DNA of 42,420 nt from Chiloscyllium plagiosum (taxonomy: Eukaryota). Positions within the stretch are counted from its first letter, which is position 1. Each line of letters begins with the position of its first letter. The notes under the pieces are model-generated. The model was not told where the DNA came from and made no database searches. It was given only the letters and a program-made list of their open reading frames with translations. The position numbers and the translations under genes were made by a program. This document shows, in pieces, positions 20,291 to 42,154 of this stretch. Where the stretch lies: positions 6,853,003 through 6,895,422 of the forward strand of contig NC_057752.1 of assembly GCF_004010195.1 (NCBI RefSeq). Direction: 5' to 3'.

Positions 20291-20450
20291 AGAAAATCAA
20301 ATTAGATCTTGTCTGACTTACAAAAACAGACAAATTTTTTTTTGCAAAAAATTTCACTGCAACGTCCATTCATATTAACGGAAACATTAAAGTGAACACT
20401 ACATTCTTTGCCAAAATTACAGGCCAATTGCCAAATAAAACGCAAAATTA

Positions 20451-20643
20451 GTCAGGCAGCCAATGGAGAGAGAGTAAGCTAACGCTTTGAGTTTAAATGA
20501 CTCTTCATCAGAGCTGTAATGAAGAGTAATCTCGACTCAAAACGTTAGCTTGCTCTCTCTCCACGGATGCTGCATAACCCGCTGTGATCTCCAGCATTTC
20601 TTGTTTACAATCCAGATTTCAGCATCTGGAGTAGTTTGCTTCG
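20451..20643. mobile_element. Inverted PLE-end mini-element with two decayed HHR cores
   Basis: Arms 20463-20511 and 20515-20563 are inverted copies; exact 14-bp TSD aaaacgcaaaatta (20437-20450, 20644-20657). Confidence 0.8.
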
Positions 20644-20859
20644 AAAACGCAAAATTAATTGTATTCAGATATAAGTGCGTGTAGTATTGGAAAGTGAGGA
20701 TTCAGTGATTTACACTATTCCCCAAAATGTGGACAAGATGAGAATTATTTCAAAACAAAAACAAGATGGTAATTTAAGATCTTTCATGTTTAGCCTTGAA
20801 TTTTCATTGAATGAAGAGGAAATATAATACAATATGTACCTAGATAAACAAGATCTAAA

Positions 20860-20948
20860 TGGAAGATTACAGACCTGAAACATTAACTCTTTCTCTCAAC
20901 AGATGCTGCCTAACCTGTCGAATATTTCAAGCATTTTCTGATTTCAGA
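20860..20948 (+). mobile_element. Decayed PLE 3' end remnant
   Basis: gacctgaaacattaactctttctctc-acagatgctgcctaacctg; same family on the minus strand at 15460-15550 and at 6945-7004 joined to 11180-11212. Confidence 0.55.
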
Positions 20949-21201
20949 CATATCTACATGAAATTTCCAAATTATAGATTTTTTTGGTAAATTGATAATC
21001 CCTTGCAGATGAGGATGACTTTCTTCCACTCTCAGGGTGAGTCGGTACGTGGATGTACAGACCGATGTGGCTTCTGCAGACTTTGTTACACTTGAGGCAG
21101 AAGGGGGTCATGGGAAGGGGTGGGTGGGGTGTGGTTGTATGCTCCTTGCCCTATTTTCTCCTGACTTCTTCTTTTTCCTGGTGGCAAGTCTTGAGGCACT
21201 C

Positions 21202-21916
21202 ATAGAGTCAGAGAGATGTACAGCATGGAAGCAGACCCTTCAGTCCAACCTGTCCATGCCAACCAGATATCCCAACCCAATCTAGTCCCACCTGCCAGCA
21301 CCCGGCCCATATCCCTCCAAACCCTTCCTATTCATATACCCATCCAAATGCCTNNNNNNNNNNNNNNNNNNNNNNNNNNNNNNNNNNNNNNNNNNNNNNN
21401 NNNNNNNNNNNNNNNNNNNNNNNNNNNNNNNNNNNNNNNNNNNNNNNNNNNNNNNNNNNNNNNNNNNNNNNNNNNNNNNNNNNTCCTGTACAGCCGCAAC
21501 ATGACCTCCCAACTCCTGTACTCAATACTCTGACCAATAAAAGAAAGCATACCAAATTACTTCTTCACTATCCTATCTACCTGCGACTCCACTTTCAAGG
21601 AGCTATGAACCTGCACCCTAAGGTCTCTTTGTTCAGCAACACTCCCTGGGACCTTACCATTAAGTGTATAAGTCCTGCTAAGATTTGTTTTCCCAAAATG
21701 TAGCACCTCGCATTTATCTGAATTAAACTCCATCTGCCACTTCTCAGCCCATTGGCCCATCTGGTCCTGATCCTGTTGTAATCTGAGGTAACCCTCTTCG
21801 CTGTCCATTACACCTTCAATTTTGGTGTTATATGCAAATTTACTGTACCTGTTATGCTCGCATCCAAATCATTTATGTAATTGACAAAAAGTAGAGGGCC
21901 CAGCACCGATCCTTGT
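21202..21916 (-). mobile_element. Young CR1 3' fragment inserted in the RTE copy
   Basis: WAEKWQMEFNSDKCEVLHFGK...EQRDLRVQVHSSLKV; ggcactc is repeated at 21195-21201 and 21917-21923. Confidence 0.9.
21354..21483. other. Assembly gap
   Basis: Run of N. Confidence 1.
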
Positions 21917-23029
21917 GGCACTCTTCCTGGATGATCCTCCTCCACTTTGGACGATCTTGGGCCAGTGATTCCCAGGTGTCTGTTGGAATGTCATACATCA
22001 CCATTGAGGCCTTGAGAGTATCACTGAAACGTTTTCTCTACCCACCTGGGGGTCGCCTGCTGTTTCGGAGCTGGGAGCAGAGCACCTGTCTAGGGAGTCT
22101 CATGTTGATAATGCGAACGATGTGCCCAGCCCATTGTATCTGATCAAGGGTCATCAGTGCCTTGACGCTGCAGATATTGGCCTGGTCAGGGATGCTAGTG
22201 TTAGTGCATCTTTCTTCCTAGTAGATTCGCAAAATCCTGTGCAAGCAGCATTGGTGGCAGTGCTGTAATGCCTTGAGGTGCCTGTATACAGTTCATGTCT
22301 CACAGCTATATAGGAGGGTGGAATCCACCACCGCTCTATAAACCATGATCTTGGTGTTGGATCTGATGTTGTCCTCAAACACCCTTTTCCTCAGGCAGCC
22401 GAAGGTTGCACTAGTACACTAGAGGGAGTGCTGGATCTCTTCATCAATAGCTGCTTTAGCCAACAGGACACTCCCGAGGTATTGGAAGTAGTCAACATTC
22501 TCTAAGGCCTCCCTGTGGACTTTGATGATCAGGGGTTCCCTCCTCAATGCCAGGCCAGGTTGGTGGAAGACTCTTCATCTTGCGAATTTTTAAAATGAGA
22601 CCCATGCTCTCATATGCCTCCGTATAGGTGCTGAGGATGGTCTGGAGTACATCTCTGAGATTGCATGTACACAAGCAACATCTGTGTACTGCAGCTCAAT
22701 GAAGCTGGTTGAGGTGACTTTGGTCTTGGTTTGACGGCAGTGGAGGCTGACTACTTTCCTTAAGAATAAGAAGGCTGCTGGAGCAGATAGTGTCCTCATT
22801 GAGACATTGAAGTGTGGAGGCACACAGCTCCTGCTGCAGCTACCTGCCCTTGTCTGCCTTATCTGAAAGGATGAGAGCTTAGCAATTTCCTTAGCAATTT
22901 CTCATTACAAGTTTTTCAGCTGTATTTTCATAATTAATACTTGGGACTTGGATGTCACTGGCAAGACTGGATTTTATTGTCAATCCTTTAGTACCCTTGA
23001 GAAGTTGCTAAATAGCCTTATCCTACAAT

Positions 23030-23222
23030 CCAAAAATGTGCAAGTTTTTGGCCATACTAAATTGCCCATAGCATTCAGGGATGTATAGGTTGGGTGCATT
23101 CGTCAGGGGTAAATATAGCGTAATATGGTAAGGGAATGAGTCTGGGTGGGTTACTCTTCAGAAGATCGGTGTGGATTTGTTGGGTCAAATGGCCTATTTC
23201 CACACTGTAGGGTTTCTACAAC
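23030..23222 (+). repeat. HE1-like SINE 3' part
   Basis: tccaaaaatgtgcaag...ggccatactaaattgcccatag...aatggcctatttccacactgtaggg. Confidence 0.75.
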
Positions 23223-23282
23223 GATGAAGTCAAGGAAATGTGCCTGCAGTAGGCCTTTGTTGACCAAACTGTTAAAATTGCT

Positions 23283-23490
23283 GAAAATGTGTTGCTGGAA
23301 AAGCGCAGCAGGTCAGGCAGCATCCAAGGAGCAGGAGAATCGACGTTTCGGGCATGAGTCCTTCTTCAGGAAAGCCCTTCTTCAGGCTCATGCCCGAAAT
23401 GTCGATTCTCCTGCTCCTTGGATGCTGCCTGACCTGCTGCACTTTTCCAGCTCTGATCTCCAGCATCTGCAGTCCTCACTTTCTCCTCGA
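23283..23490. mobile_element. Inverted PLE-end mini-element with HHR
   Basis: About 65-bp near-perfect inverted arms. Minus-strand CTGAAGA-A-GGAC-tcat-GCCC-GAAA-CGTC at 23342-23369. Exact 16-bp TSD aaactgttaaaattgc (23267-23282, 23491-23506). Confidence 0.9.
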
Positions 23491-23804
23491 AAACTGTTAA
23501 AATTGCCAACATTTTGATTGCCTAATTGCCTGAAATAAATTGCTTGATCTTCAAAAGACTTGGTCATCTTTGACCATCCAAAGTCATGACTGTTGATCTT
23601 CAAAGATTTCTGCTCATGCAGTCTTTATATAAGGAAATAAAACAAATAGGATATTTTGCATAAGTGCCTACATTTTGAAGAACTTTCTAAAAGGAATTTT
23701 AAAATTTTTTCATACCACATTTGTAACAGTTGATCAAGCCAATTTATATAATCTAAGCTTGACATCACTATAAATATATTAATCTTTAGCATTGCTTAAA
23801 AAAA

Positions 23805-24605
23805 ACACGTTTTCAAAGCTTTTCATCATGTACTCATCAGAATAATTTGCAAGAATACAAATTTAATGGAAAATCAACATTTATACTATATGAGAGTGCT
23901 GATTAGTCACCAAGTGGACTCTGTTTTGTAGAGGTATTCCCATGGAGAATACATCAGTTAATAATGATTGACAGTTAACAGCCAGGCTTTGTTTGAATTT
24001 TAAAAAAGGCAGGTTGACTCTGATTGGTCGAGGCAATGCCCTAAGAAATGAAATGAATGGTTGCCACTTATTTTGTTGAGTTGAAACAGGCAAAATTGGT
24101 CTACAAAGAATATAGCCCCATGCATTGTTCCCCAGGAGCTGCATGGCTATGTTCACATGCAGCCACTCTGATGTTCAGCGCATGGCAATCAGCATCAGCA
24201 CACTGATTCCTCCAGTTCTGGAAGTCAGTGCTATTCATGGGTCTTGAAAGCCTGCGCGGTCATTAATAAAGTTTGGGGCAATGTTGGTGCCGTGGATGAA
24301 TGTTTGTAGCTTCTAGTACAGACAAATGGACCACACACTGCAAGCCTAAGTGACAATCATACACTGATTGTCAGCATGATTCTTCACACATTCAGCAAAT
24401 ATTGTCCAATTGAAGAATCTAATATAGAAACAGTGTTGTAAGTTTTGCAAGTATGGAATGGTGGGTATAGTCAGTACCATACTTGTTGTGAACACCCATG
24501 TGGTACATGTATTTCAGTGCCGGTGTGATGCTAGATATGTCTGAAGCATGTGCCAGTAACTGGCAGATTATATCAAACAACATATCCCCTCAGCTGCTTG
24601 CTGTT
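23805..24605. mobile_element. Old Penelope-like element of another family, with an internal inversion
   Basis: Plus strand 24497-24605 VVHVFQCRCDARYV...LADYIKQHIP (GIY-YIG); minus strand 24300-24480 DSSIGQYLLN; minus-strand HHR-like ctgatgagtacatgatgaaaagctt at 23816-23840. Confidence 0.7.
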
Positions 24606-24714
24606 ATACCTTCTAAACTGATAGGGAACATTGTCAGAATTACAAGTAACTTACCACAATTCAGAGTTTACAAAGCTGAACTTCATTAATGGCATCAGCC
24701 ATAGTTTAGCCTAC

Positions 24715-24890
24715 ATGTCAGAAGGATCTGAGTTCATTCTGCTCCGGTGACTTCAGTACAAGGATCTTGGCTGATATTCCAGCATACCACTGAGGGAGTG
24801 CTACACAGCCTTTCAGGCGAGACATTAAAGCAAGACCCAAGCTTCTCTCTAAGGCGGATGTAAAAGATCCTATTGCAATATTTCAAAGGG
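24715..24890 (+). repeat. Deu-domain SINE fragment
   Basis: ctgagggagtgctaca...tttcaggcgagacattaaa...ggcggatgtaaaagatcctattgcaatatttc resembles the Deu-SINE central domain. Confidence 0.65.
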
Positions 24891-24899
24891 TCATTTCAA

Positions 24900-25268
24900 A
24901 CAGCACAGAAGGAGGTTATTCAGCCCTTCAATTCTATACCTGGTCTCTGTAGAGTAATCCAGTCATTCTCATTTCCCTGCTTTATCAACAGCGAGTTCCA
25001 TGTCATCACTACTCACTGATTTAAAAATATTCTTCCTCATATTTTACCCTGTACCCTGCCCAAAACCATAACATTCTGCCCTTGTCCTTAATGGAAACTT
25101 TCCAATGTCTACCTTTTATGTAAAAATGTCATAATCTTAAACACTAATATCAAATCTCCCCGGACCTTCTTTGCTTCAAGGAGAACAGCCCCAGTTTGTC
25201 CAATTTAACATTGTAGCTAAAATCCCTAATCCCTGGAACCATTGTGTTAAATTTCTTCTGCATCCTTT
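24900..25268 (-). mobile_element. Old CR1 3' fragment
   Basis: cagcacagaaggaggttattcagccc tail; aaggagaacagccccag...atccctggaacc...aatttcttctgca. Confidence 0.6.
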
Positions 25269-25325
25269 CATGTTGCAACAATGACAAGAGGAGTGTGCTC
25301 GTAACCAGGCCCCACTACTCCGTGA

Positions 25326-25786
25326 ATCGACGTTTCTGGCATGAGCCTTTCTTCAGGAATGAGGAAAGTGTGCCAAGCAGGCTAAGATAAAAGGTAGGGA
25401 GGAGGGACTTGGGGGAGGGGCGTTGGAAATGTGATAGGTGGAAGGAGGTCAAGGTGAGGGTGATAGGCCGGAGTGGGGGTGGGGGCGGAGAGGTCAGGAA
25501 GAAGATTGCAGGTTAGGAAGGCGGTGCTGAGTTCGAGAGATTTGACTGAGACAAGGTGGGGGGAGGGGAAATGAGGAAACTGGAAAAATCTGAGTTCATC
25601 CCTTGTGGTTGGAGGGTTCCTAGGCGGAAGATGAGGCGCTCTTCCTCTAGCTGTTGTGTTGCTATGGTCTGGCGATGGAGGAGTCCAAGGACCTGCTCCT
25701 GTTCCTTGGATGCTGCCTGACCTGCTGTGCTTTTCCAGCAACACATTTTCAACTCTGATCTCCAACATCTGCAGTCCTCACTTTTT
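25326..25786. mobile_element. PLE 3' fragment (minus) joined to an inverted PLE terminus (plus)
   Basis: Minus strand: EEERLIFRLGTLQPQGMNSDF, 3' UTR and HHR (25329-25356). Plus-strand terminus at 25695-25786. Exact 14-bp TSD ccactactccgtga (25312-25325, 25787-25800). Confidence 0.9.
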
Positions 25787-26569
25787 CCACTACTCCGTGA
25801 GCCACACCATTTGTGTAACGTTTTGATTCTGTCATCAGAATGGCCAATTGTTTCACTTTGGTACTGCTATCCAGAATAAAAGAGAAAATTCTCAGGTGTT
25901 TTTGATGAACTTAAAAATAATGTATTATAAAATAAAAGTCATTTCTAAAAACAAGTGACAAAACTGGTCAACATCTAAGATATAATCCAGAATTATCCCC
26001 TTTTAATCCTAGCACAAACAAACCCACATAACAAAATGACAACAAAGAATCTGTGCAAATATTTTGAAACGGGCCGAAGAAAAATATCCTTATTGTCTGA
26101 AAAACAGAAAATGGAACTTCACAAATTCTCATAGTCCACCTGGTTTCTTGTTGACAAATTGCATTGTTAACAGCTGTAGACTGATGGAAGGCCTTCCAAA
26201 CTAGCTTCAGGTCAAACAAAACACCAACTATTTCCAAGTCTTTGAAAAATGATCACAATTCAGATTCTGAACAATTAGAAGGCAGTCAAAATACCGTGAT
26301 ATGGAAATTTTATCAGGTTCACAACTACTTCAGCCAAGAGAGAGGGAGAGTGTCTTACTGATTTTATTTCAAGTTTTAGAGGTTTGCTTGTTTCTGACTC
26401 CCTTAAAGCTTTTTGAAACAGAAACCAAGATTAAAAAGGATTGCTAGGCAATCATCAGCACAAGTCTATTCCAAAGTCAGGTTTTCCAGTAATTTAGGGC
26501 AATAAATTCCATTTCTTATCTCACTAAAAGTTTTGCTAGGCTGTTTTCCCAAAGTCACGACTTTCTATA

Positions 26570-26775
26570 ATTATCAGGTAGATCACTGCCCACACTAAAT
26601 TGTTGACCTAGTTGCAGTTGTACTGGAACAGCTTGGATGTAGTAAGTTCTGGTGCATAAATCTTTAGTACTATTACTGGAATAGTGTCAGGGCCTGTAGC
26701 CTTTGCAGTATCCAGTGCCTTCAAGCGTCCTTTATATTGCCTGGACTGAATCAAATTGCCTAAAAACTGAAAGCT
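26570..26775 (-). mobile_element. LINE ORF2 linker fragment
   Basis: RLKALDTAKATGPDTIPVIVLKIYAPEL..SKLFQY. Confidence 0.7.
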
Positions 26776-28219
26776 GAAGTGAACAAAATTAAAGAACAAA
26801 AAAAAAATTGGATTTGAATTATTAAGGGCTTAGGAGTACAAACACTTAGTCAGAAGTATCCTCAGGATGGATATAGATGAAGGGAGAGCTGAAGAATTTT
26901 GAGTCCATGTATGATGATATTTTAATGGTATTGGGTGAAGTGATCTGTATCTGGGAAATTTGAGAAGAACAAACCAAATTAAGGAGCATAAATTTGAATC
27001 AATATTATTGAGAGATTATGGATAATAGGATATGGTGAATTTTAACATGGAAATAGATAAACTGAAATCCAAAAAATATTTCACAAATATTATGTCAGTG
27101 ATTTAAGTAGATCATCACACTTAAAAGGTTAAAGAAAGAGTGATCAAGAACATTGATAAGACAGGGGGTGATAGTAGTCTTGTCTTATAAAAGTGAAAGA
27201 TTTAAAGAGAGTGTTTTCAATGCCTTCCTCAATTTGCAAATAATATTTGTGACTAAGAAAATGAGTGAATTTCATCTTTTATTGATAGTAGAATGGTTAG
27301 TGACTTATCTATTGGTTGCAATTACACTAGTGGAAAGATAGAACAAGAGCTATCATATGTAGCTAAGAGAAATAGTATGCAAAGTATTTAAAGTAGAGTC
27401 AGTATGATCAGAACCATATCTTTTGCATCAGCTCATCCAATCTTAATTGAGCAGCATGTGTGAGATAGCTTGGAATCAGTCACCATTTTATATGATATGA
27501 TATGTGGGGTAAAAGCAAATAAATCAGTGAGCTACCCTTACCTTCACACAAACACTTATTGTGTGACATGTCACAACAAGTAATTTAAACACAGTAAGGA
27601 CAGATATCCCATGAGGAACCGAACTTCTATTTTAAGCTAACTTAGAGCATGCAAATAAGTGACACAATCTGGAGAAATTAGAATTGTAACTACAACTGCA
27701 AGATAGATAAGAAAATTATTATGTGAAGCATCAAATGCCTCAAGGAGGTGACTTGTAGGATTAATAGGGAACTTATATTTGAAATTAACACTTTATAAAT
27801 GACTTAGTTTAGTTATAATCACATGATGAAAGTATATTTATTGATTCACCTAATATAATAGTATTCTGCTTAAGTATAGCTAATGTAGATCATGACATTC
27901 TAACATCACATGACTTACCTTCAATTGACACAGAAATGCACCATGGGATTGCAAACAGGGTGAAGATGATAATCTAATGTTTTAGATTTACGTGCTATAA
28001 GGCTGAGGGGCATCTGTTTAGTTTCATGATCCATGAATCATGACTACAGCTATGTATTGGTGTATTTCAAACGTACTGCAATTGACTAAATGTAACTTTT
28101 GCAATGGAATTACCAATCTACAATGTAGTCAAGTTTGTAGTTGTATAATCCTTAGACTTTAACATATCCTTAATAAAAACTTTGTAGAATTTAGCATACT
28201 TTCTGATCTTATGTATTAA

Positions 28220-28430
28220 GGGGATTGGTTAGCTGGATGGCTGGTTTGCAATGCAGAGTGATGCAACAGCATGGGTTCAATTCCCACACTAGCTGGGGTT
28301 ACCATGAAGGATTCTGCTCCTCATCCTCTTTCCTTGTCTGAGGTGTAGTGACCCTCAGGTTAAATCATCACCAGTCATCTCTCTCTAGTCAGAGAGAAGC
28401 CCTATGATCTGGTAGGATATGGAGACTCCA
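28220..28430 (+). repeat. tRNA-derived SINE
   Basis: ggttagctggatggctgg...gggttcaattccc (B box) ...accctcaggttaaatcatcaccagtc. Confidence 0.6.
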
Positions 28431-30899
28431 TTGTTATTAAGGTAATATAAGGAACACAAAATGTTTCTAAATATTTCACATAGCAGAATCAAACTAGCCA
28501 AAAGCAAACTGATCATAATACGTAAGTGTCTGATTTAATGGGAACTTTATCAATTACTCAAGGATTGAGACACGAACTCAAGACATCAGTCGAGTCCAGA
28601 TTATATATCCCTGCCATTTCCTTTGAACAAAGAAGCAATAAATATTTATCTTACTAAAATCACAAAACAAAATTAATGAAGCGGATTGATCCATGGACAA
28701 TTGACACATTAAGGAACCAACAAGCAGATAGTGGGAGGTGATAGCAGTGAACAGCTAATTAGAGATTGATCACACATCCCTTAAACCAATTAGTAACAAG
28801 TCTTGCTTAGTTTAGGCAAGCAGAATGTATTGATGTAATTCATAAAATTGTGGGATGTAGTTTGGAAAGAGTTAATAAGCAGCAGCTTTCAATAATGAAG
28901 GCACATAGATGAGAAAGTCTGAAGTTGTGTTCCTAGTGGTGGACGAGAAAGAACATGTATAGTATATATAATACACTCTGCTCACAAACGTGTCTTCTTT
29001 TGCTTCACTATAAAAAATATACAAACTCTATTCACAAAGTTGTCCTTTTCTGTCTGACAATAAAAAAAGAGAAAGTTTGAAGTTATCCCATTTCCAACTA
29101 GGAGAGGAAGGCCAGTGAGACATTGGAGAGAGAAAGAGAGATTGGGTGTCAACCTGTGCCCTCAGCCAGAAAGTAAGAGCTATAGTACGCCTGTAAAGTC
29201 ATTGCTCTGCTTTTTGATAAGTTGATTATAAATTTTTATAACTTACTATAAGTTTACTGAGTTACTGCACTGGAATGTATGTTGTTGCCTTATTGGTTAA
29301 AGTTTTCAAGTGAAAAAATTAATATTGGGATTTGAGTATTAGACCTCTATAAACTTACCCCAGCCAAATCACATAAAGAATGGTTGAAATTCTGTTCTGG
29401 TTAAGAGTTTTCACAGTCACTCATTTAAATTAAGATCAATGTATCATTCTAAAATGATGCATCATCCAACTGTCTGCCAATTTGCACACTATTCTACATA
29501 AAAGACTAAGTTGTATTTCAGCCACTTCATCAATCTAACAGACCTCAAATGAATTTCCCCAATGGTTGTGTGCATCCTTCATATTTAGATAAATTAAGTG
29601 TCTGACTTCATCGTACAGAGAAGATTCTGAACATTGTGCAGTCAAAATGCAAACAGGAAGACAGGACTCTAATATAGTAAATGTCAGCAGCCTATACTCC
29701 ATACCTGACCTTTGTAATTCACAGTATTTCCAGTAAAATCATTAATAAAGCCGTTTAAAGAGGAAGAGTCTGATCAAGATTAGAAAATAAATTTGCGCAA
29801 ATCCAACCGCAGTGTTCGAATACGTCTGAAAAACAGAAAACCACTGACATACTGTGACCAGTTTCTCAATTCTGGAGCAGAGCGTTGATATTGCAAGCAT
29901 GTGTTTAGTTGTAGAAATGGAATGAGAATAGCAATATTTTAAAATTTCTAATAGCCAATACTGCAGATACATAAAATTGGTAATTAAGGTGGTGGCAATT
30001 CATTTTAGTTTTCTGAAATGATCCTGTTTTCAAGTAAAATGTAAGATTTTTAGAAAGCTAAATGTTGGGAGTTAATGTTCTTGGATTTTTTTATATACTA
30101 ATGTAATTGAAAGGGGTGCTACGATACTAAAGTATCTGGAATCTATAACCTAAAAGAATGTATTTGTGAATAACTAAAAGCATCAAAGAGAGATTAAAGA
30201 ATAAAACCAAATGAAGATCCAAGTACTTCTTTGTTTTAAACATTCAAAATAAATTTTGAGGACTGGAAATATATTTGTTGAACACAAAGCCAAGATAATG
30301 ATGTTATTGTGGTTTCATAGCTAATATTGTTTGTGGACTTCAGTTTGAAGGATTATGGATACCTGGATTATTCTTTAAGAGGTCAATGACAGGATAACAA
30401 AACATTTTTAAACAAGTCGTTTCTTCAAAGTCACATCTTGCTATAACTGCTTGTTTACTGCAGGGCCCCAGTCTGGCTTTACAATTGATAGGTTTGCAGC
30501 TTCTATTTTGAAGATTGTTTGGACTTTTCAGTTGGCAGCCAGCTTGTGGGAAGGAAAAGAGCTCCCCAGTCCAGCTCTCCTTTTCCTGAAAAAAATATTC
30601 TTGTTGCAGATCCAGAGAGGTACATGCAGCCATGGTCCAATTGGAACCTTGATTGTTCTTCTGAAGAGCATTTGGTAATCCTGATCCTGTGTTTCCTGTG
30701 TAAGCTGCTTTGGCACAAAGACATCTGGTTATGTTTGGTGACATACATCTTTGTTTGGTAGATTATTAGATGGCAGTCATCTGTACTTTCCACACCTTAT
30801 CTTTTTTTGCTTTCAAGATCTATGATTTCTGGCCAAAAGTCTTGTCCCCCGCAAAGTGAATTACTATAGAGAAATGTTATTTTCCTTTTACCTGTAGTG

Positions 30900-32189: not shown

Positions 32190-33505
32190 GTAGTAAATAG
32201 CATGTGAGAAATTGTGGACACTTCCCGTAACCTAGATGAACACATGTGCAGGGAGTGTTAGCAGCTGCAGAAACTTGAACTCCAGGCTTTAGGTCTCAAT
32301 TGGCACCTGGAGTCACTGTGGTGCAAAGGCTTACAGTTACATGAATTTTCAGAGAGGTGGTCACACCACAAGTTAAGGACATGCAGGCAAATAGGAAATG
32401 GATGACTGCCAGACAATCTGAAAGAATCAACCCAGATAGTACAGGTGTCCCCTGTGGTCCTGCTCAAAAATTGGTTTTCATTTCTGGATAATGGTGAGGT
32501 TGATGGTTCCTCAAATGAGTGCAGCCACCTCTAGGTCCATGGCCCCACAGGTGGGCCAACTGTACAAGAGGGAAGGAAGAAGAATGGTTGAATGTACTGA
32601 TTGGTGATTCATTAGTTAAGGATAGAAACAGGCATTCCTGTGCTATAGACATGACTCCAATATGGTGTGTTGTCTTCCTTGTGTCAGGGTCAAGTATATT
32701 GCAGAGTGGCTGTAGGACATTCTTCTGGGGGAGGATCATCAACCAGAGATTGTGGTACATGTTGGTACCAACAATATAGTAAGAAGGTTGATATGGTCCT
32801 GCACTTGTAGTCTAGCAAGCACCAGGAAACCAACAAGGAGGATTCAAAAGTTGTGATCTCCAGATTGCTGAGCACAGCACAAAAATGAGTACAGAAATAA
32901 GAGGATAAGGCAAATGAATTTATGGCTGGAAAGATGGCACAGGAGAGAAGCCTGGGACAGGATCTGAGGAGATGAAACCTAGAGAAGCTGCATGGGTTAA
33001 ACCTGAACAGAATCAGAACTTAGTTCTTTGCACAGAGTTTTGGTAGTTCTCTTGGGGAGGTTCAAAACTAACTTAACAGGGGTGTGGAACCAACAGAAAA
33101 TACTAGAGAGTATTACCATGGTGCACAAAATATTTGGAGAGTCAGATAGCACTAAAATGGAGAATAGTCAGTTATTAAGTAGAGTTGGAGTGAGAAATTA
33201 AAACATTCTAAATCAGGGAAACACTATGTATATAAATGTGTGGAAAATATTAAATAAGATTGGTGAGCTACAGATGCAGATTGCCATTTGGAATTATTAT
33301 AATATAACAATAACAGAAACCTAATTGAAGGAAGGACAGGATTGGGTGTTAAATATTCTTAGTTACAGAATGTTCAGGAAAGATAGGAAAGGAAGGGAAA
33401 GAGGAAGGGTGGTATCAGTTAAGGAAAGCGTCACAGTACTTTAGAAAGAAGATATTTCAGAGGGGTCTAGGACAGTATTGATTTGGCTGGAGCTTAGAAA
33501 CAAGA
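32190..33505 (+). mobile_element. Decayed CR1 ORF1 and start of ORF2
   Basis: HMCREC; VLIGDSLVK (SGNH-esterase block); VVHVGTNNI; ITET; RKDRKGR; IWLELRNK. Confidence 0.8.
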
Positions 33506-33660
33506 GAAGCCAGGAAAATGGCATTATGTTATGACTTTTATTCAGGGGGCTGGTGCAGAGATGATGGGCTGAATGGCCTTCTTCTGCATTGTAACAATTC
33601 TTTGATTTTGAACTCCATCTGTGATACCCCAGTCCACTCCTCTTGTTCTTGCATGTGTGA

Positions 33661-34300
33661 ATTGAATTGAATTGAATTTATTGTCACGTGTACCGAGGCA
33701 CAGTGAAAAGCTTTGTCTTGCAAGCAATACAGGCAGATCACAGAGTTAAGTAGCATAGATAGTAAATAACAGGTAAACAGCAGCAAAAACAAAAACACAG
33801 GTACAGGTGAATGTTAAGACTTTGAGAGTCCATTCAGTATTCTAATAACAGTAGGGTAGAAACTGTTGCAAAACCGACTGGTGCGTGTGTTCAGGCTTCT
33901 GTACCTTCTCCCCAATGGTAGAGGTCGTAGAAAAGCATTGCCAGGGTGGGATGGATCTTTAAGAATGCTGGCGGCCTTTCCTTGACTGTGGGCCTGGTAG
34001 ATGGATTCTATAGATGGGAGGTTGGCGTTTGTGATTGTCCGGGCTGAGTTCACCACTCTCTGTAACCGTCTCCGATCTTGAATAGTATAGTTGCTATACC
34101 AGGTGGTGATACATACAGAAAGAATGCTCTCGACGGTGCACCTATAAAAGTTGGCAAGGGTATTCGCCGTCATGCCAAATTTCCTCAGCTGCCTGAGGAA
34201 GAAGAGACATTGTTGGGCCTTTGTAACCAGTGCATCCACATGAAGAGTCCAAAAAAGCTTGTTGTTGATGACCACTCCCAGAAGCTTGACACTCTCCACG
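33661..34300 (-). mobile_element. Rex1/Babar-type LINE, 5'-truncated and relatively young
   Basis: Uninterrupted 161-aa frame KLLGVVI...KAQQCLFFLRQLRKFG...FYRCTVESIL...LQRVV; aataaa followed by (ttcaa)n tail; 8-bp TSD atgtgtga (33653-33660, 34301-34308). Confidence 0.9.
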
Positions 34301-36140
34301 ATGTGTGATCAAGTCACTAATCATACACGGTTGTCCCCAGAGTCCTGACATTCACAGCTTGCTCAGTAAGTGCAATCTTCAGTATATCTTTCAATCACTC
34401 TTTCCAAAGAACAAATAGGTTTAACCCTGAACACAACAAGAGGATTTATTTCCAGAAAGCGGGAAGATCAGCGAGATAGACCTTCCTGCAGGTTTCATGT
34501 CCCCCAACTAATTCGAGCAACCAAAGCACTCTCTCTTGAGTTACTTTTCAAACAAGCCCGGTCGAGAAGGGGTTGCCATGCCACCTTTACACTTGTGGTA
34601 TCTAAAGTTTTCTTTTCCTATTGCTCCATCTAGCTGCAACCCTGAAAGCAGCAGCTGAGTTGGAGTTTGTCTATTCAATGTCACTTTGGATGACTGTGGC
34701 TGGCGTGAGACCTTGAGGCTTCTAGTTTACTGGGGGTCTCCTGCACTAGTGCAAAGGCAACCCCTTGACCTCACTACTGCTGGAGCAAATTAAGTCAATG
34801 TTAGAGGGCATGAAGAGCCAGCACAAACTCTGCAGGTGCCCTGAGAGGAAGCCCCAGAGCAACTGGCATGCACTTCCCCTCCATCTGGGTGCACGGATGC
34901 ATGATGCATCTGTTTCTCCTGCATGACAATGTGCAGTTAGGGTCATGTCAAGTGAAACTTAGCCCACTGTCTGCATGAATCCCTATCACACCTAATAGCC
35001 TGTCATTTACATGTGACATTCAAGTGCAAAGAACAGCCAAACACCTATATGTTTTGGCCTCAATTGTCATGTAGCACTAAAGTTAATCATACACTCACAT
35101 TTCTGACATAGCTGCCCATTCAGTGATATAAGTTTTTTATGGGAAAATCTTTGATGCTCTCTCATGAGAGACCCTTTATTGAAATGCAATCATGGCAGAT
35201 TGGAGCAGGTCGTTCAGCCATTTCCTGCACTGTACTCAGGTATTGCAAAGAGCCCCATAGGTGATCACATCCATTGGCAGCTCTCTCTTGGCTAATCTGG
35301 TCAGGCTGGAGGGCCTTCTGAAGCCATCTGCAGGGAGGCATCACTGAAGTGTTGGGATGATCTGTCTAGGCTCTGACATCTTTTAAAATGAAAGGCTTAG
35401 ATGTATTGGTAGGGGAGAGAGGAGAAGACAGAATAATAAAGGAGGGAGAATGATAGGACAAGAGGCTTGAGGGAGCCCGAGGTTGAAAGGGGTACAGCAA
35501 GAAATTGACCCACTGACCAGGAAAGTTCGGGCCTGACATATGTATGTCTGAGAGGTTCATTATACTCCATCCACTCCCGTTCTATTGTGGACTGATTGTG
35601 GGTTGCTCCCAGCAATATTATGCACGTGCCGTTGCTTTAAATATTAATTAGAATCGGAGGGAAGCAGTGAAAAGCAAAGCATCATAATGGCACCCACTTC
35701 TGGAATGGTGCGCCAAAGTTAAAATTCAACCCTGCATTGTTAGCACTGTGTTCTCGGGCTACTGTGAAAACTAGATGGCAGTCAAAACTTTTTCAAAAGA
35801 ATACTTTGAATAATTTTGCTGGTTGTCCTTCTGTGGTTGCTTTCTGACCTGAAGGATACCAGGTGATTTGCTAATTTTTAAAAGAAGAAACAATATATCA
35901 GCCACTCAAACATAACATTCAGCTTGCATGTGTTTTTTAAAGTGTTTTGGATTGTCTTCCTTCAAACTATAAGGCTTTGACCTTGATTGATCGAATACTT
36001 CACTTCATACCACTTGAGCACTCAACTTTGTCCAGATCCATAATCCCTGCAAATTGGAACAGGATTTTGAGTAGCTAATTACAAAAAATTAAAAATAAGG
36101 TAGTGCTGGAGACAAACCAAATGACTGTAATAACAAGATA

Positions 36141-36359
36141 CAGTCAGTTCTGCTCTAACATGTGTTTCTTCAACGTGTATTGGTTACAATGCGATTGAAG
36201 AATTTAGACCATTATTTGTAGAACACAAACTTGCCTTACCTGTATTGGCGATAATGCGATCCCAGTCCCATTAGTTTAAATGGCGCTGCTATTGCACAAT
36301 TTTCTTATAACGAAGGATCGCATGGGAATGGAACTATTGCGTTATATCAGAGCCAACTG
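36141..36359. mobile_element. Tc1/mariner-pogo (Tigger-like) MITE
   Basis: TA|CAGT...ACTG|TA ends; terminal inverted repeats match at 14 of 20 positions (cagtcagttctgctctaaca vs cagttggctctgatataacg). Confidence 0.7.
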
Positions 36360-36439
36360 TAGCGAATGAGTCGCATGCCAAGGATCTAACTAAAGTAATA
36401 AGTAGCTAATTTTCTCAAGAACCACTTTTTTTGGTAATT

Positions 36440-36712
36440 ATCTCTTTGCCTCGTGTAATCAGATTGTAGGTCATCCCTTTGCTTGTTATTCAGCTGTTGA
36501 CACTTTACTCACACCGTCTGACACTTTTGATCACCCGCAGAGACTTATTATTCAACACTCTACTCAAACCATTTATATGATCTTTTGATCTCTCTGCCTA
36601 TAAATTCTGTGTCTGTGTACTTCTCTCTACTTTACCTGACGAAAGGGCTACACTATGAAAGCTTGTGATTTTAAATAAACCTTTTGGACTCTAATCTGGT
36701 GTCATGTGATAT
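36440..36712 (+). mobile_element. PLE 3' end (GAAAGCT family) with a decayed HHR
   Basis: CTGACGA 36636-36642, GAAA 36657-36660, GCTT, then aataaaccttttggactctaatctggtgtc; homologous to 41937-42022. Confidence 0.7.
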
Positions 36713-37179
36713 CTGTCTATTTCTTAGGTTATTCTAATTGTGTTATTTAGGCAATTAGTGTAACTAATTTGCAAAATCTGCTTAAATCTGAAATTTAAAG
36801 GCAGTCACAAAACAACTAATTGGCTATTACATACAGCAGATTCAATGTGTTGAAACATTTGGGGATGTGAAGGAATTACTGAAAATCAGTACTCAGTCTC
36901 ATTTCCATGCATTGGCTGAGAGGGGCTCCGTGGAATGTACTCAAGCCACAGCAAGTTATGTATTGTATTCACTATTCAATTCACACTTGCCTGCAACAAT
37001 CACATTAGTCATCATTCTATTAACCAGCAGAAATTCACGAGATGAAATGGCATACTCCTGCTCTAATTTCTGATGATATTACACAGGATGAAGTGAGATA
37101 TTTCCAAATCTCTGAATCATGCAGTAAAGAGTTCTGCAGTAGGATTGGTCCACTCTGCCTCTGGAAAAGCAGTAGATTA

Positions 37180-37790
37180 TATAGAGCATAGAACAGTACA
37201 GCACAGAACAGGCCCTTCAGCCCACGATGTTGTGCCGACCATTGATCCTCATGTATGCACCCTCAAATTTCTGTGACCATATGCATGTCCAGCAGTCTCT
37301 TAAATGTCCCCAATGACCTTGCTTCCACAACTGCTGCTGGCAACCCATTCCATGCTCTCACAACTCTCTGTAAAGAACCCGCCTCTGACATCCCCTCTAT
37401 ACTTTCCTCCAACCAGCTTAAAACTATGACCCCTCGTGTTATAATAGGGCGACCAGAACTGGGCGCAGTATTCCAAGTGCGGTCTAACCAAAGTTTTATG
37501 GAGCTGCAACAAGATCTCCCGACTCTTAAACTCGATCCCCCTGTTAATGAAAGCCAAAATACAACCCTGTCCACTTGGGTGGCCATTTTAAGAATCTATG
37601 TACCTGCACCCCAAGATCCCTCTGTTCCTCCACACTGCCAAGAATCCTATCCTTAATCCTGTACTCAGCTTTCAAATTTGACCTTCCAAAATGCATCACC
37701 TCGCATTTATCCAGGTTGAACTCCATCTGCCACCTCTCAGCCCATCTCTGCATCCTGTCAATGTCCCGCTGCAGCCTACAACAGCCTTCT
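37180..37790 (-). mobile_element. CR1 3' fragment with an internal deletion
   Basis: WAERWQMEFNLDKCEVMHFG; LVRPHLEYCAQFWSPY fused directly to TRGHSFKL. Confidence 0.9.
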
Positions 37791-38019
37791 TATTAGTAGA
37801 TGTTAGTAGATGTTCATATTAGTAGATGTTGCTCACAAAAAAAGGTATCAGTTATTAACAAGCTCTGCAATCAGGAAAATTGCAAGATGCAATTTTTAGT
37901 TCTTTGGTCTACATGGACTATACGTACACAATATAGTCTGTACTAGTTTCCAAAAGTATAAACACCAGACAATGGAGGAGGAGCATACTGAAGAGAGCGT
38001 TCAACAAGAGGTTACAATT

Positions 38020-38202
38020 GCTGAGTCACAGTCACTGGGTCAAAATCCTTGAACTCCCTCCCTGACAGAACTGTGGATGGACCTATGACACATGGACTAC
38101 AGCAGTACAAAAGACAGCTTACCAACACCTTCTCAAGAGTAGTTAGGGTTGGGCAATGAATGCTGACCGAGCTGGCAATATTTATATCCCATTAATGAAA
38201 AC
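38020..38202 (+). repeat. LINE/SINE 3' tail
   Basis: gtcactgggtcaaaatccttgaactccctccc...catggactacagcag...gggcaatgaatgctg; homologous to 2610-2770. Confidence 0.65.
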
Positions 38203-38788
38203 AAATGTACAAGGTAAGAGAAGTAGTATTCAACACATTTATTTCGGAGTTACTTTGTAAACTGTAGTGCAGGGGAGAATTACAATGCATTATATAGGTA
38301 CATGAGAAAGAGGTAAAAGACAGAAATACTACACAGATACACATTCAAAATTCACTTTTGCTGTGAGTTCTTGGGTGTTAGCTGTGCTGCCACGGTGACT
38401 CAATAAATGGAATCTTGGTATTTATTTATTTTTATGGGTGTGCTGGAGTGGGGATGGGGAAGGAGGAGGCAGTAAGTCATAGATAATCAACACTGAGATA
38501 TGCGCACACCTGCTGGCAGCAGAAGGCATTGGCATATTTCTGGCAAGTGTCTGCCCATTTCCTTGGGTAAAGAACCCATTCAAACAAAGAAAACATGCAG
38601 GAAATATGTTACTGTGATCTTATATGCACTTGATGGTCAATGCTCTATACTGGCATGTTATTTCTCTTGACATCACAAACTACAAAATACCTCGTGTGAA
38701 CATTAGGAAATCATGGGCTACTGCTGTCCCTTTACAACAGAAAGCCACAAGGCATTGAAAGAAAATAATCTCCGTCCATAGCGAAAGA

Positions 38789-38848
38789 AGTCTTACAGTG
38801 TTCCCCCCTCCCCATGCCAGTCTTACAGTGTCCCCCCCTCCCCATGCC
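38789..38848 (+). repeat. 30-bp tandem duplication
   Basis: agtcttacagtgt(t/c)cccccctccccatgcc twice, one mismatch. Confidence 0.95.
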
Positions 38849-39109
38849 CCCATTACCAGCAAAGATTTAATTTGAGGGTGGCAGCAAACCACAAAGTAAA
38901 ATGTGTGCTTCTCATCTTCCATGTAAAACAAGGAGACTGAGAGACCTGGAGAATAATGATACTACATCAGTCACATGTTAAAAAAGCAAGAGGATATGGC
39001 AGTGTTATAGGGCTGCTATAAGGATAATGATAGCCAAAGTGGGAAAGGAAAGGATAGAGTATACAAATACAGAAAACAGCAGTGAATAGGGTCAAAAGGA
39101 TAAAAAATG

Positions 39110-41812
39110 ATAAAAAGGCAAAATTAATACTTCTTGAATGTGTGTCCTCTTCTAAGCAATATAAATGATTTAATGGCACAAATACAGGTTCATGGGTATG
39201 CCCTTATCGCCATTATGAGGACATGTTTTCAAGGAGATCAAAGCTGAGAACTAAATATTCATGGTTGTGTGACTTTTTGAAAGGACAGACAGGAAGGGTA
39301 GTAATATTGTTTGTACAGGATGGAATAAGCATGATAGCAAGAAACAAACGCACTAACAAACAATCTTGGGTTGGAAGATGTGGAAATTCATTTAGGTGGA
39401 GGTAAGCAATAAAAAGGAAAAGATGACACTGGTAGGAGTAGTGTGTAGACTCCCTAATAGTAGTTACATGTTGGGTTATGGAATAAATCAGGAGATAATG
39501 AGAACACGTAAAAAATGCACATTATTAATCATGGGTGATTTTAGTTTTCATGCTGATTGGGGTAGTCAGATTGGCAGACAGAAGAATTCATAGAAGTATT
39601 CAGGGCAGTTTCCTAAAACACTATATTGTTGATCCAACCAGGGATAAGGCTATTTTAGATCTGGTGATGTGTAATAAGGCAGCTCTAATAAATTATGTCA
39701 GAGTAAGAGATCCCCTGGGAAGCAGTGATCATGACAAGGCAGAATTTAGCATTTAGTTTGAGAGGGAGGAACTTGGGTTGGAAATACCTGTGCTAAACTT
39801 AAACAAGGACAATTACAAAGGAATGAGGACACAGCTGGCTGCAGTAGACTGGGAAAGGAGTTTAGACACAAAGACAGTTCGGGAACAACGGTAGATGTTT
39901 AAGAAAATAGTTCATGGCTCACAGCGAAGAAATATCCCAATGAGAAAGGAGGATTTTAGGAAGGGGATAAGCCAACCATACTTAACCAGGGAATGTAAGG
40001 GTATCACCAAATTGAAAGAAAAAAGAAACATACACTCTGGCAAAGATTAGTGGTAAGACAGAGAATTGGGAAAACTTTAAAAATAAACAAAAAGATGACC
40101 AAAATAAGGAGGGAGAAGGTAAACTTTGAGAGTAAACTTGCAAGTGATACAAAAGATAGACAGCAATAGCTTCTTTAAAAAGAGAGATGGCAAAGTTAAT
40201 CTAGGCCCCTTAGAGAATGAGGCTGGGGAAATAATAATGGGGAACCAGGAAAAGCAAATGTATTGAATAAATACTTTGTATCATCTTCACAAGTAAAACA
40301 CACTAATAGCACTCCAAAATTACTAAATATTCAAGAGACAAAAGGAAAAGAGAAAATAAAGATCAATAGAGGAAAAGGTGCTAGGTATACTAATGGGGCT
40401 AAAGACTGATAAGTCCCCTGGACCACATGGTGTGCATCCTAGAATGTTAAAAGATATAGCTACAGAGATAGTGGATGCACTAGTAGCCACCTTCCAAGAA
40501 TCTTTATATTTTACAAAAATCCCAGAGGACTGGAAATCTGCCAATATGACACCTCTATTTGGAAAAAAAGAAGAGACAAAAATAGGTAACTATAGGCTAT
40601 TTAGCTTAACAGATGTTATTGGGTAAATGTTAGTCTATTATGAAGGGTGTAATAGCAGAGTATTTAGAAATGCTAATATGATCAAGCAGAATCAATTAGA
40701 ATTCTTTGAAGAGGTAAGAAATAGGATAAATATAGTGGAAACAGTGGATGTAAGATATATTTGGAGTTTCAGAAGGCTTTTGATTAGCTACCACACATTA
40801 GGCTACTTAATAAGAACCCAAGGTGTTAAAGGCAGTATGTTAGCATGGATAGAGAACTGGCTAATGAACAGAAGACACAGAGTTGGGATAAGAGTTCATT
40901 TTCAGGATGAACTGTAACTACTGCTACGCTACAGGGATCAGAGCTGAGTACACAAATCATTTATTATATATTAACGACTTGGATGAGGAAAATAAAATGT
41001 ACTATATCCAAGTTTGCAGATGACACAAGAATAGGTGGTATGACAAAGTCTGCAGAGGGATACAGACACGTTGCAAGTGGTCAAAAACTTGGCAGATGGA
41101 ATATAATGTTGGAAAATGTGAGGTTATGCACTTTGGTAGGAAGAATAAAGAGCTGAATAATATGTATATGGGGAAAGAATGCAGAAAGCTGCAGCACTCG
41201 GGCTTTAGGACTCCTTGTGCATTAGTTACAAAAAGCAAACATCCAAGTTCAATGGGTGATAGGGAAGGCAAATAGAACATTGGATTAATTTCAAAGGGAA
41301 TAGAATATAAAAATAAAGGAAGTCTTGCTAAAGTTATAGAAGGCACTAGTCAGACCACAGCTGGAATACTGCAAACAGTTCTGGGCTCTTATCTAAGGCC
41401 TGTACTGACTGGGATATAGAAGAGTAAGAGGTGACATTCTTAAAACATGCAATATTCTTTGGGGACTTGAAAGGGTAATGAGGGGAGGTTATTCCCCTTG
41501 TGAGAGAGTCTAGGATGAGAAAGCACAATCCCAGAATAATGGGTCACCTATTTAAGACAAATACGAGGAAGAATTCCTTCTCTCAGACATAGTGAATCTG
41601 CGGAATTCTTTACTGCATAGAGCTGTAGAGGTTGGGTCATTAAGTATGTTCAAGGGTGAGGTCGATTTTTGCACTGTATGGGAATCAAGGCTTTGAGGAA
41701 AACACAGAAAAATGGAGTTGAGGATTATTAGATCAGGCATGATTTCATAATATGGTGGAGCAGAATCATGGACTGAATAGTCTACTTCTCTCCCAAGTTT
41801 TATGGTCTTAAG
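39110..41812 (+). mobile_element. Decayed CR1 ORF2 (endonuclease to RT) with 3' UTR
   Basis: IMGDFS; PTRDKAILDLVMCN; LGSSDHD; KSPGPHGVHPRMLK; PEDWKSAN; NYR..SLT; ISKFADDT; WQMEYNVGKCEVMHFG. Confidence 0.9.
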
Positions 41813-41834
41813 GAAACATCGCTTCCTTACATCA

Positions 41835-42022
41835 TGATGTGGTAGTGTCGGTATTGGACTGGGGTGGACAAAGTTAAAAATCACACAATACCAGGTTATA
41901 GTCCAACAGGTTTATTTAGAAGTACAAGCTAGCTACCAGATGAAGGAGCAGTGCTTAGAAAGCTTATACAGTACTTCCAAATAAACCTGTTGGACTATAA
42001 TCTGGTCTTGTGTGATTTTTCA
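41835..42022. mobile_element. Inverted PLE-end mini-element (GAAAGCT family) with a decayed HHR
   Basis: Arms 41871-41924 and 41971-42025 are inverted; cagatga-aggagcagtgctta-gaaagct lies between them (41937-41964); exact 13-bp TSD cttccttacatca (41822-41834, 42023-42035). Confidence 0.85.
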
Positions 42023-42154
42023 CTTCCTTACATCAAACAGCCCTGTGACATGAAAACAATAGCAATAAAAATAGGAAGGTGACTAAGTAGAACTAAAACT
42101 CCACAAAGATTTTTATAGAATTCAGAGGGAAGTAGCTTCACCTATTGCGCTTTT

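Follow-up and report, generated by a model that had tools for sequence, protein, structure and literature searches.

Short inverted inserts of Penelope-like element ends in Chiloscyllium plagiosum: probable one-off products of priming on both target strands

Do short, inverted pairs of Penelope-like element (PLE) ends form a self-copying family of their own, or are they single by-products of PLE integration? We examined four such inserts, named A, B, C and D, in a 42,420-nt stretch of Chiloscyllium plagiosum DNA (the window). We consider it likely that A–D are one-off insertion products of endonuclease-bearing PLEs and not a self-copying family.

Four inserts from three sequence families

The original prediction held that each insert lies between exact target-site duplications (TSDs) of 13–16 bp, and exact direct repeats of these lengths were indeed found on both sides of all four (a comparable flanking repeat arose by chance in 16 of 195,393 random intervals of equal size), although insert B begins at 23282 and not, as had been given, at 23283. 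The window holds 13 exact direct repeats of at least 12 bp (spacing 80–1600 bp); five of them reach 13 bp or more, and four of these five are loci A–D.

20437 to 20450, plus strand: left TSD of A, 14 bp
20644 to 20657, plus strand: right TSD of A, 14 bp
23266 to 23281, plus strand: left TSD of B, 16 bp; final 2 nt shared with the element (+61, +62)
23491 to 23506, plus strand: right TSD of B, 16 bp
25312 to 25325, plus strand: left TSD of C, 14 bp; final 2 nt shared with the element (+4, +5)
25787 to 25800, plus strand: right TSD of C, 14 bp
41822 to 41834, plus strand: left TSD of D, 13 bp
42023 to 42035, plus strand: right TSD of D, 13 bp

The proposed common architecture stood in that every insert joins an antisense piece to a sense piece, but not in its palindrome, which C lacks. 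A, B and D consist entirely of two PLE ends (188–209 bp) with no reading frame between them and fold, as predicted, into long hairpins (folding z −8.7, −17.7 and −9.5, respectively; 0 of 200 shuffles equally stable). C is 461 bp long, is largely sequence of the element's 3' coding end, has arms that abut on the template and forms no hairpin (z +0.96; 84 of 100 shuffles as stable). Arm-to-arm identity is 63/65 in B, 51/55 in D and 42/50 in A, values by which the three inserts would differ in age yet share the same outcome.

Three sequence families were seen among the inserts, as had been claimed. B and C match PLE ends at 258–986 and 4329–4564 (family 1), A (family 2) is 65–70% like the family-1 ends, and D (family 3) matches only a fragment at 36633–36723 within the window. 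Two family-1 copies serve for comparison.

3116 to 4563, plus strand: copy F, the family-1 reference; reverse transcriptase (RT) fragment, assembly gap, and pLTR with intact minimal hammerhead, no tail
core at 4474, predicted cut at 4501/4502, plus strand: hammerhead of copy F
1 to 986, plus strand: copy E; antisense RT piece ending at 259, then sense GIY-YIG region, pLTR and tail (258–986)

The TSD of copy F is 11 bp with one mismatch; no exact TSD of at least 10 bp was found for copies E, F and G, and copy H has only a distant 10-bp match. The inversion joint of copy E lies ~630 nt upstream of its hammerhead, and its left end is beyond the window. In copy F, RVT_1 is matched with E 5.6e-6 (26.6 bits, under the 29.6 cut-off), while the copy E frame, which the inverted piece of C matches, gave 0.96 against protein clusters, one set of which carries GIY-YIG on 18% of its members; Pfam returned nothing in the endonuclease frames of copy E or locus C. 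A PLE origin for all families, as originally proposed, thus holds for family 1, which has a coding link to EN+ PLEs, whereas the families of A and D come without a PLE reading frame in the window (tblastn found none adjoining A, D, copy G or copy H); D is a candidate PLE on its hammerhead-like motif and architecture. A cysteine-containing stretch ahead of the endonuclease motif in copy E is a lead that may point to the Neptune clade rather than Poseidon. Motif scans elsewhere gave 0 family-1 matches in viral contigs, 48 in metagenome contigs (none aligning to the window beyond 34 bp) and 3 family-3 matches in bacterial genomes (none extending past 23 bp).

Arms, centres and priming on two strands

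The arms and centres are given below, with template positions relative to the predicted cut.

20451 to 20515, minus strand: A tail-less arm, family-2 end; starts 4 nt upstream of the CUGAUGA core (core start 20511, minus)
20512 to 20515, no strand: A centre; self-complementary AGCT common to both arms, equal to the 5' strand of predicted helix I
20512 to 20643, plus strand: A tail-bearing arm; core mutated; ~34-nt tail (~20610–20643) relative to copy G
23282 to 23372, minus strand: B tail-less arm, family-1 end; template −31 to +60
23373 to 23386, minus strand: B centre; 14 nt of template (−29 to −16) copied a second time, with 2-nt overlap with the plus arm
23385 to 23490, plus strand: B tail-bearing arm; template −19 to ~+97, without the CUGA core and the 14 nt preceding the tail
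25326 to 25696, minus strand: C inverted piece; template +3 back to ~−370, taking in the hammerhead core and beyond it the 3' end of the endonuclease coding region
25696 to 25786, plus strand: C sense piece; template +5 to tail end, no overlap with the inverted piece
41835 to 41930, minus strand: D tail-bearing arm, family-3 end; starts 5 nt before the predicted cut; 36-nt tail 41835–41870
41931 to 42022, plus strand: D tail-less arm; starts 3–6 nt upstream of the mutated core (41937–41943)

A tail is present on one end only (B ~35 nt, D 36 nt, A ~34 nt relative to copy G; in C on the sense piece), and such a one-sided tail is a PLE signature (PMC8557442; PMC3846280). The tail-less arm of B, 97% identical to copy F and with an intact minimal core at 23369–23346, begins at +60/+62, the point where copy F also ends. 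That of D carries a 5-nt insertion at the predicted cut site (41966–41970) and overlaps the right TSD by 3 nt. In both B and D, the tail-less arm holds a core that is absent from the tail-bearing arm, and only the latter holds the tail; since each arm contains template missing from the other, neither is a fold-back copy and both were copied from RNA. Mutually missing sequence inside one TSD is what two-sided priming predicts.

We propose that a PLE protein, whose action we infer from the observed TSDs, would nick two target strands 13–16 nt apart, and that both 3' ends would prime reverse transcription on element RNA at internal start sites, namely the tail end (~+97 from the predicted cut) and a tail-less site 34–36 nt further in (+62). 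These sites would lie near the RNA 5' end, so that each cDNA would be just 65–130 nt long; it would run off at a fixed boundary 3–5 nt before the core or halt before reaching it, commonly on the 3' strand of helix I, and the two cDNA ends would be joined head to head through 2–5 nt of microhomology, at times with re-copied bases. Where both primers start downstream of the hammerhead, overlapping arms and a hairpin would result (A, B, D), and where the second primer starts at the first cDNA's stop, an L1-style twin-priming inversion without a hairpin would follow (C). In vitro, purified Poseidon protein cuts each of the two strands and extends it, beginning at two internal sites that bound the tail (PMC11167929); two-sided priming in vivo and the end joining are our inferences.

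A hairpin could also arise by fold-back self-priming, whereby a short palindrome lets a cDNA (or, in the proposal of Arkhipova et al., 2013, an antisense RNA) fold onto its own strand and prime the second arm from it, and the text of PMC3846280 reads palindromes at head-to-head joints in this way. The zero-spacer AGCT centre of A and the palindromic centre of D (AGCTAGCT) are suited to it, as are two differences from copy F that the arms of B share (at ~16% and ~53% of summed X1 depth), although shared differences are also expected from one RNA or from RNAs of one source locus. A fold-back arm must, however, contain nothing that its template arm lacks, whereas in B and in D both arms hold such extra sequence, short of invoking subsequent deletions; the arms of C have no overlap at all. 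A is just as compatible with fold-back, all of its minus arm being contained in the plus arm. That minus arm also does not start at the expected tail-less site, stopping ~31 nt short of the end of tail-less copy G. Overall we regard fold-back as unlikely.

The template boundary before the hammerhead

To look beyond the window we surveyed contigs for family 1, aligning 71,243, 83,120 and 77,576 contigs from three organisms to copy F (for two runs the counts are at-least values), and considered the best 15 of 51 joints, 12 of 104 filler joints and 18 of 884 loose-end rows. Summed contig depth climbs 2–4-fold over positions 4459–4497 of copy F; subfamilies that diverge upstream, seen in the row at 4466 (agreement 0.47), account for part of this step. 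Five of the six 5' loose-end rows listed fall at 4469–4471, 3–5 nt upstream of the core, with random flanks (agreement 0.31–0.32) and 201–389 contigs each. The arms end at the corresponding place: both arms of A exactly 4 nt before the core (equal to 4470 in family 1), B 3 nt and D 3–6 nt. The original prediction that the hammerhead marks the template boundary is therefore supported in modified form, as contigs and arms point to the 5' edge of predicted helix I and not to the cleavage site; none of the six 5' loose-end rows listed lies at the predicted cut (4502), and we rejected the cut as main boundary. A splice acceptor was likewise rejected as its source (no AG precedes 4470). The predicted placing of inversion points at or near the hammerhead fits the arm ends of A, B and D but not one side of the joint in C, ~370 nt upstream, and templates can reach hundreds of bases upstream of the boundary (E and C).

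The arms of A, B and D can thus be taken for the extreme truncations first suggested, though the truncation is not random, with arms ending 3–6 nt before the core. Random truncation and inversion unrelated to the hammerhead, with short products owed to poorly processive reverse transcription, would suit the joint of E and one side of that of C, both far upstream in coding sequence, as well as the B plus arm that stops at −19 and a joint at 4518 (+17). Against this, the pile-up at 4469–4471 is sharp in three organisms, contradicting random truncation for family 1, and the arm ends of A, B and D coincide with it; we consider this the least probable of the alternatives. Hardly more credible is shrinkage after insertion, in which cruciform- or hairpin-induced deletion removes the middle of longer inverted PLE insertions. 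The window does contain a long inverted copy (E), the 14-nt deletion in the B plus arm sits between short repeats, and microhomology deletions are described as common in PLEs (PMC3846280), but shrinkage leaves unexplained why the arms of three families end within 3–6 nt of one motif, and why the same pile-up appears in contigs with random 5' flanks.

The boundary is probably where the element's RNA begins. TCAKTY is an initiator-like motif, and position 4470 is the A of its sole match in 4329–4563; the position also lies in one of three BBCABW matches. BBCABW, too, is initiator-like (PMC5287114), and both words are frequent in the window (BBCABW 15.9 and TCAKTY 1.5 per kb). The promoter of D. 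virilis Penelope is located in the pLTR (PMC2377424).

A second cluster of breakpoints, to which C and six of the 12 filler joints listed belong, spans −1 to +5 around the predicted cut and may record cleavage or stalling. A further-reaching reading, possible though doubtful, is that both strands of helix I bound templates in vivo: PLE RNA would begin at the helix's 5' edge, the ribozyme would cut some of it, and the breakpoints between −1 and +5 would preserve in the genome the traces of cleavage and subsequent template jumps. The insertion at the cut site of D and a 4470/4506 joint seen in all three organisms can be cited alongside C and those filler joints. If true, the many thousands of PLE copies in these genomes would be a readable assay of hammerhead function; in vitro, PLE hammerhead cleavage is dispensable, leaving its role open (PMC11167929).

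Could the inserts nonetheless be a self-propagating class, MITE-like or retrozyme-like, in which PLE proteins take transcripts of the palindromic unit and insert it anew as a whole? In cis, pLTRs are all that mobilisation in trans requires (PMC3846280), the retrozymes of animals descend from PLEs (bioRxiv 10.64898/2026.07.22.740005), and some of the joints listed recur (4470/4506 in 1, 1 and 5 contigs; 4471/4518 in 3, 4 and 2), but such recurrence is expected if the mechanism fixes both ends. One listed filler joint reaches depth 284 in X9 against ~20 for unique flank. The four loci have four different centres, and that of B, which carries event-specific debris, is absent from the joints listed (15 of 51; filler 12 of 104, the lowest of those in X1 having depth 28 against ~5 for unique flank) and so lends a MITE-like class no support, a weak test given the share of joints listed and the collapse of palindromes in contigs. 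The original prediction had proposed that unique joints unrelated to the hammerhead would speak for simple truncation-inversions; the centres do differ by locus, but the joints are tied to hammerhead position. Motif traces do lie at the centre, as predicted, but are mostly decayed or cut short: the core is intact in two of the eight arms of A–D (B minus and C minus, the latter at 25356–25333) and, across the 12 stretches examined, also in E, F and H, the other seven being decayed or shortened. Forcing a hammerhead fold onto B costs ~37 kcal/mol, no locus among A–D carries an intact hammerhead twice on one strand or a tandem same-strand pair, and Rfam left the hammerhead unmatched. With unrelated centres, rare intact cores and no terminal inverted repeats, the ribozyme-class proposal finds no support in our data, and we hold it very unlikely.

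Minimal PLE inserts among known systems

A–D define no new mobile element class; they are mostly ordinary PLE footprints, and the refinement is that copying usually halts at the front edge of the hammerhead. The origin of tandem and inverted PLE ends and the purpose of the hammerhead are stated as open (PMC8557442; PMC11167929), and minimal inserts such as B and D lay the reaction bare, with mutually missing sequence in the arms within one TSD, while the fixed 5' boundary offers a testable RNA start. Such hairpins also risk being annotated as MITEs or microRNA precursors (Rfam gave four matches, all to microRNA models far under gathering scores). Nor do their termini resemble those of MITEs: their ends are not inverted repeats, the tail sets the arms 36–65 nt out of register, and the arms derive from retroelement and not DNA transposon ends.

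Animal non-LTR retrozymes (Li, Clavereau and Pollet, bioRxiv 10.64898/2026.07.22.740005), reported in a chondrichthyan genome, are likewise PLE-derived and non-coding with a type I hammerhead. They are, however, head-to-tail tandems with an intact hammerhead per unit, whereas A–D are head-to-head single inserts with mostly broken cores, and on this definition, which calls for two or more such units, A–D were rejected as retrozymes. The fold-back rearrangements of bioRxiv 10.1101/2024.12.14.628481 are of larger size.

The hammerheads here, numbered after PMC4209133 and classed as minimal type I motifs in the pLTR, resemble those of metazoan PLEs (Cervera and de la Peña, 2014, PMC4209133) in their type I core, missing helix III loop and short helix I. 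That text describes opposite-strand hammerhead pairs spaced 100–700 bp, while most motifs are solitary and stem from truncated PLEs; its results and discussion leave the TSDs and joints of those pairs undissected and name no sharks, though its supplements may show short inverted copies. Closest in form are the inverted-pLTR insertions of EN+ PLEs (Penelope/Poseidon, Neptune and Nematis; PMC3846280, PMC8557442), in which a head-to-head 5'-truncated copy lies beside a sense copy; they share the one-sided 30–40 bp tail, the TSD around the unit, joint palindromes and the pLTR hammerhead. Unlike them, A, B and D consist solely of two ends, with arm ends clustered at one position, and the TSDs of A–D are 13–16 bp against 8–10 bp in rotifer PLEs.

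L1 twin and dual priming (Meyer et al., 2010, PMC2837659) offers the same logic of TSDs around two inverted fragments, a top-strand overhang as second primer, and microhomology; it differs in that PLEs start internally and have no poly(A) tail. C fits twin priming, and alone has its marks (+3/+5 and +5, with a 2-nt TSD overlap), whereas the arms of A, B and D overlap and fit dual priming, in which both nicks are primed at the normal start and which is merely postulated for L1. For Poseidon of Anolis carolinensis in vitro (Frangieh et al., 2024, PMC11167929), start sites lie downstream of the hammerhead; the text reports no RNA read with either end at the cut site, around which some of our breakpoints fall (−1 to +5 of the predicted cut), and has no description of a joined product, though its supplements may show short inverted copies. 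By analogy, families that we know from DNA sequence would appear to share with Poseidon both the extension of two strands and the two starts that bound the tail.

Short inserts and PLE families in the window

The original prediction described four inserts in which an antisense end of a Penelope-like element (PLE) is joined to a sense end between exact target-site duplications (TSDs) of 13-16 bp, and we found such TSDs at all four (loci A-D, given here with the other PLE copies of the window; the tail is ~30-40 nt on one end only):

20451-20643: locus A insert, family 2; exact direct repeats of 14 bp at both sides
23282-23490: locus B insert; exact direct repeats of 16 bp at both sides
25326-25786: locus C insert; exact direct repeats of 14 bp at both sides
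41835-42022: locus D insert, family 3; exact direct repeats of 13 bp at both sides
1-986: copy E, family 1; frame with GIY-YIG-like features, tail-bearing end
3116-4563: copy F, family 1; RT fragment, tail-less end
20874-20946: fragment G, family 2
36633-36723: fragment H, family 3

When 195,393 intervals of similar size were drawn at random, 16 had comparable flanking repeats, and those of A-D are among the five longest of the 13 exact repeats of at least 12 bp lying 80-1600 bp apart in the window. The 538 bp within the fifth, a 13-bp direct repeat at 5284-5847, are unmatched in the rest of the window and may stem from an ancient insertion of a different element. The left TSD edge of D is the centre of a short mirror complement (41829-41840), formed by the last six bases of the TSD and the first six of the insert, which may reflect chance, target choice or hairpin opening. 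The expected palindromes were borne out at three loci, with long hairpin folds in A, B and D (z = -8.7, -17.7 and -9.5, respectively), but C gave no hairpin fold (z = +0.96). On the minus strand of B, a forced hammerhead fold costs ~37 kcal/mol relative to the hairpin.

The window contains eight recognised PLE-end loci, of which A-E are inverted; three of these five have their centre at the hammerhead. The RT fragment of F matches RVT_1 under the curated cut-off (E = 5.6e-6), and the frame of E scores 0.96 to clusters in part annotated GIY-YIG; E is a long inverted copy whose joint lies between RT and endonuclease coding sequence and whose left end lies beyond the window. No reading frame adjoins families 2 and 3 within the window. 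Two decayed open frames presumably resemble parts of retroelements: an RT segment of an LTR retrotransposon (10002-10394) and the C-terminal part of a LINE (33814-34308). The TSD of F itself measures 11 bp and includes one mismatch. In two organisms (sets X9 and X13), contigs from the flank of F align only from 4564, with ~370 unaligned letters ahead, which suggests that the F insertion is absent there. Both E and F contain the pattern CUGANGA-stem-GAAA-NN-UH, the minimal type I hammerhead motif as defined in PMC4209133; in F the core runs from 4474, the cut is predicted at 4501/4502, and predicted helix I pairs 4470-4473 with 4502-4505 with one mismatch. The core is intact in two of the eight arms of A-D.

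Arms of the four inserts

Counted from the predicted cut, the tail-less arm of B runs from +60 to -31 (a 2-nt TSD overlap extends it to +62, also the end of F). A second copy of -16 to -29, 14 nt long, separates it from the tail-bearing arm, which starts at -19 and reaches about +97. Right before the tail (23452-23453), 14 nt are missing from the plus arm of B, with short direct repeats on both sides. The inverted piece of C reaches from +3 (+5 counting overlap) back to about -370, and its sense piece from +5 through the tail end. In D, the tail-bearing arm starts at -5 and the tail-less (plus) arm 3-6 nt ahead of the core; right at the predicted cut, the latter has an insertion of five bases (41966-41970), which could be template-jump filler or a decayed short duplication. 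Both arms of A have a common start, one AGCT that makes up the four bases directly ahead of the core. The four centres resemble one another in position only.

In B and D, the hammerhead core occurs only in the tail-less arm and the tail only in the other. Because each arm holds what the other lacks, and a fold-back copies only its own content, two priming events, with both arms copied from RNA, are needed for B and D unless later deletions are assumed. For A, fold-back of one strand fits as well as two-sided priming.

Breakpoints at helix I

We aligned DNA contigs of three organisms to F 4329-4700 (71,243, 83,120 and 77,576 contigs in sets X1, X9 and X13; family 1 only). Between bins 4446-4458 and 4485-4497, summed depth, which is not copy number, rose from 2.3 to 8.3 million in X1, from 4.2 to 10.0 million in X9 and from 1.6 to 8.0 million in X13. 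The 18 listed of 884 rows of loose ends, where contigs leave F's sequence, include six 5' ends: five lie at 4469-4471 (201-389 contigs each, random flanks), the sixth, at 4466, resembles upstream sequence of another subfamily, and none of the six is at the cut. The main boundary of family 1 therefore lies at -33 to -31, where helix I has its outer edge; arms of A and B end there too, and one of D nearly so. The idea that the hammerhead marks the template boundary is thus supported for this edge in family 1 and for the A and B arm ends, but not as a universal rule, against which count the inversion joints far upstream of the hammerhead in E (~630 nt) and C (~370 nt, one side) and the tail-bearing arm of B, which stops short of the boundary at -19.

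Within 4329-4563, the A at 4470 is +1 of the sole match to TCAKTY, an initiator-type word, and of one of three matches to BBCABW (word taken from PMC5287114). The initiator-like word at 4468-4474, whose A at 4470 falls on the 5'-end pile-up and takes part in the outer base pair of the predicted helix I, also occurs in E and C. Initiator-like words are common; their position here, together with transcription beginning within the pLTR (the PLE end repeat) of D. virilis Penelope (PMC2377424), suggests a putative transcription start at 4470.

Among the 15 of 51 joints listed, two opposite-strand joints recur in the three organisms, 4470/4506 (1, 1 and 5 contigs) and 4471/4518 (3, 4 and 2), as does a head-to-tail joint of 4564 to 4470 (3, 21 and 3). 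The last joint connects the tail-less end with the 5' boundary in a 95-nt unit; it may come from a tandem like those of retrozymes or from a template jump after run-off. Six of the 12 filler joints listed of 104 (breakpoint pairs with 1-12 extra letters between, listed without orientation) connect 4501-4505 with 4470-4471; with the break of C at +3/+5 and the insertion of D at the cut, they make the 3' strand of helix I a second breakpoint hot spot. This cluster could be the outcome of a template jump after ribozyme cleavage, or of stalling at helix I. The inverted piece of C passes the cut by 3 nt and the tail-bearing arm of D by 5 nt, more in keeping with an uncut template at both loci. In the work of Frangieh et al., cleavage was dispensable in vitro and reads ending at the cut were not found (PMC11167929).

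Propagation and priming

The proposed self-propagating, MITE-like class gained no support: the centres differ, A-D have no terminal inverted repeats, and B's centre is absent among the listed family-1 joints (15 of 51) and filler joints (12 of 104). The missing centre argues only modestly against self-propagation, since few rows are listed, contigs collapse palindromes, counts from two runs are incomplete and family 1 alone is covered. The lowest listed filler joint in X1 has a depth of 28 vs. ~5 for F's unique flank; in X9, the filler joint 4505 to 4470 has 284 vs. ~20, which suggests that some joints are multiplied in that organism. Two intact hammerheads in tandem, which define retrozymes (bioRxiv 10.64898/2026.07.22.740005), are absent from A-D.

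We consider A-D real insertions, three of the four palindromic, that are probably best read as by-products of two-sided priming, in which PLE proteins would prime on both target strands while copying a short RNA leader. PLEs typically show an inverted 5'-truncated copy and, at one end, a 30-40 bp tail (PMC8557442; PMC8969392). In rotifers, inverted pLTRs are flanked by TSDs of 8-10 bp and head-to-head joints contain palindromes (PMC3846280), and a 2014 study described hammerhead pairs that lie 100-700 bp from each other on opposite strands (PMC4209133). Among the open-access main texts searched, we found none that describes minimal inserts like A-D in sharks or a clustering of 5' ends at helix I. 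The structure of C agrees with L1 twin priming (PMC2837659), and the two-arm structure of B and D agrees both with L1 dual priming, only postulated there (PMC2837659), and with the biochemistry of Poseidon, whose protein nicks and extends both strands and begins synthesis at two internal sites that delimit the tail (PMC11167929).
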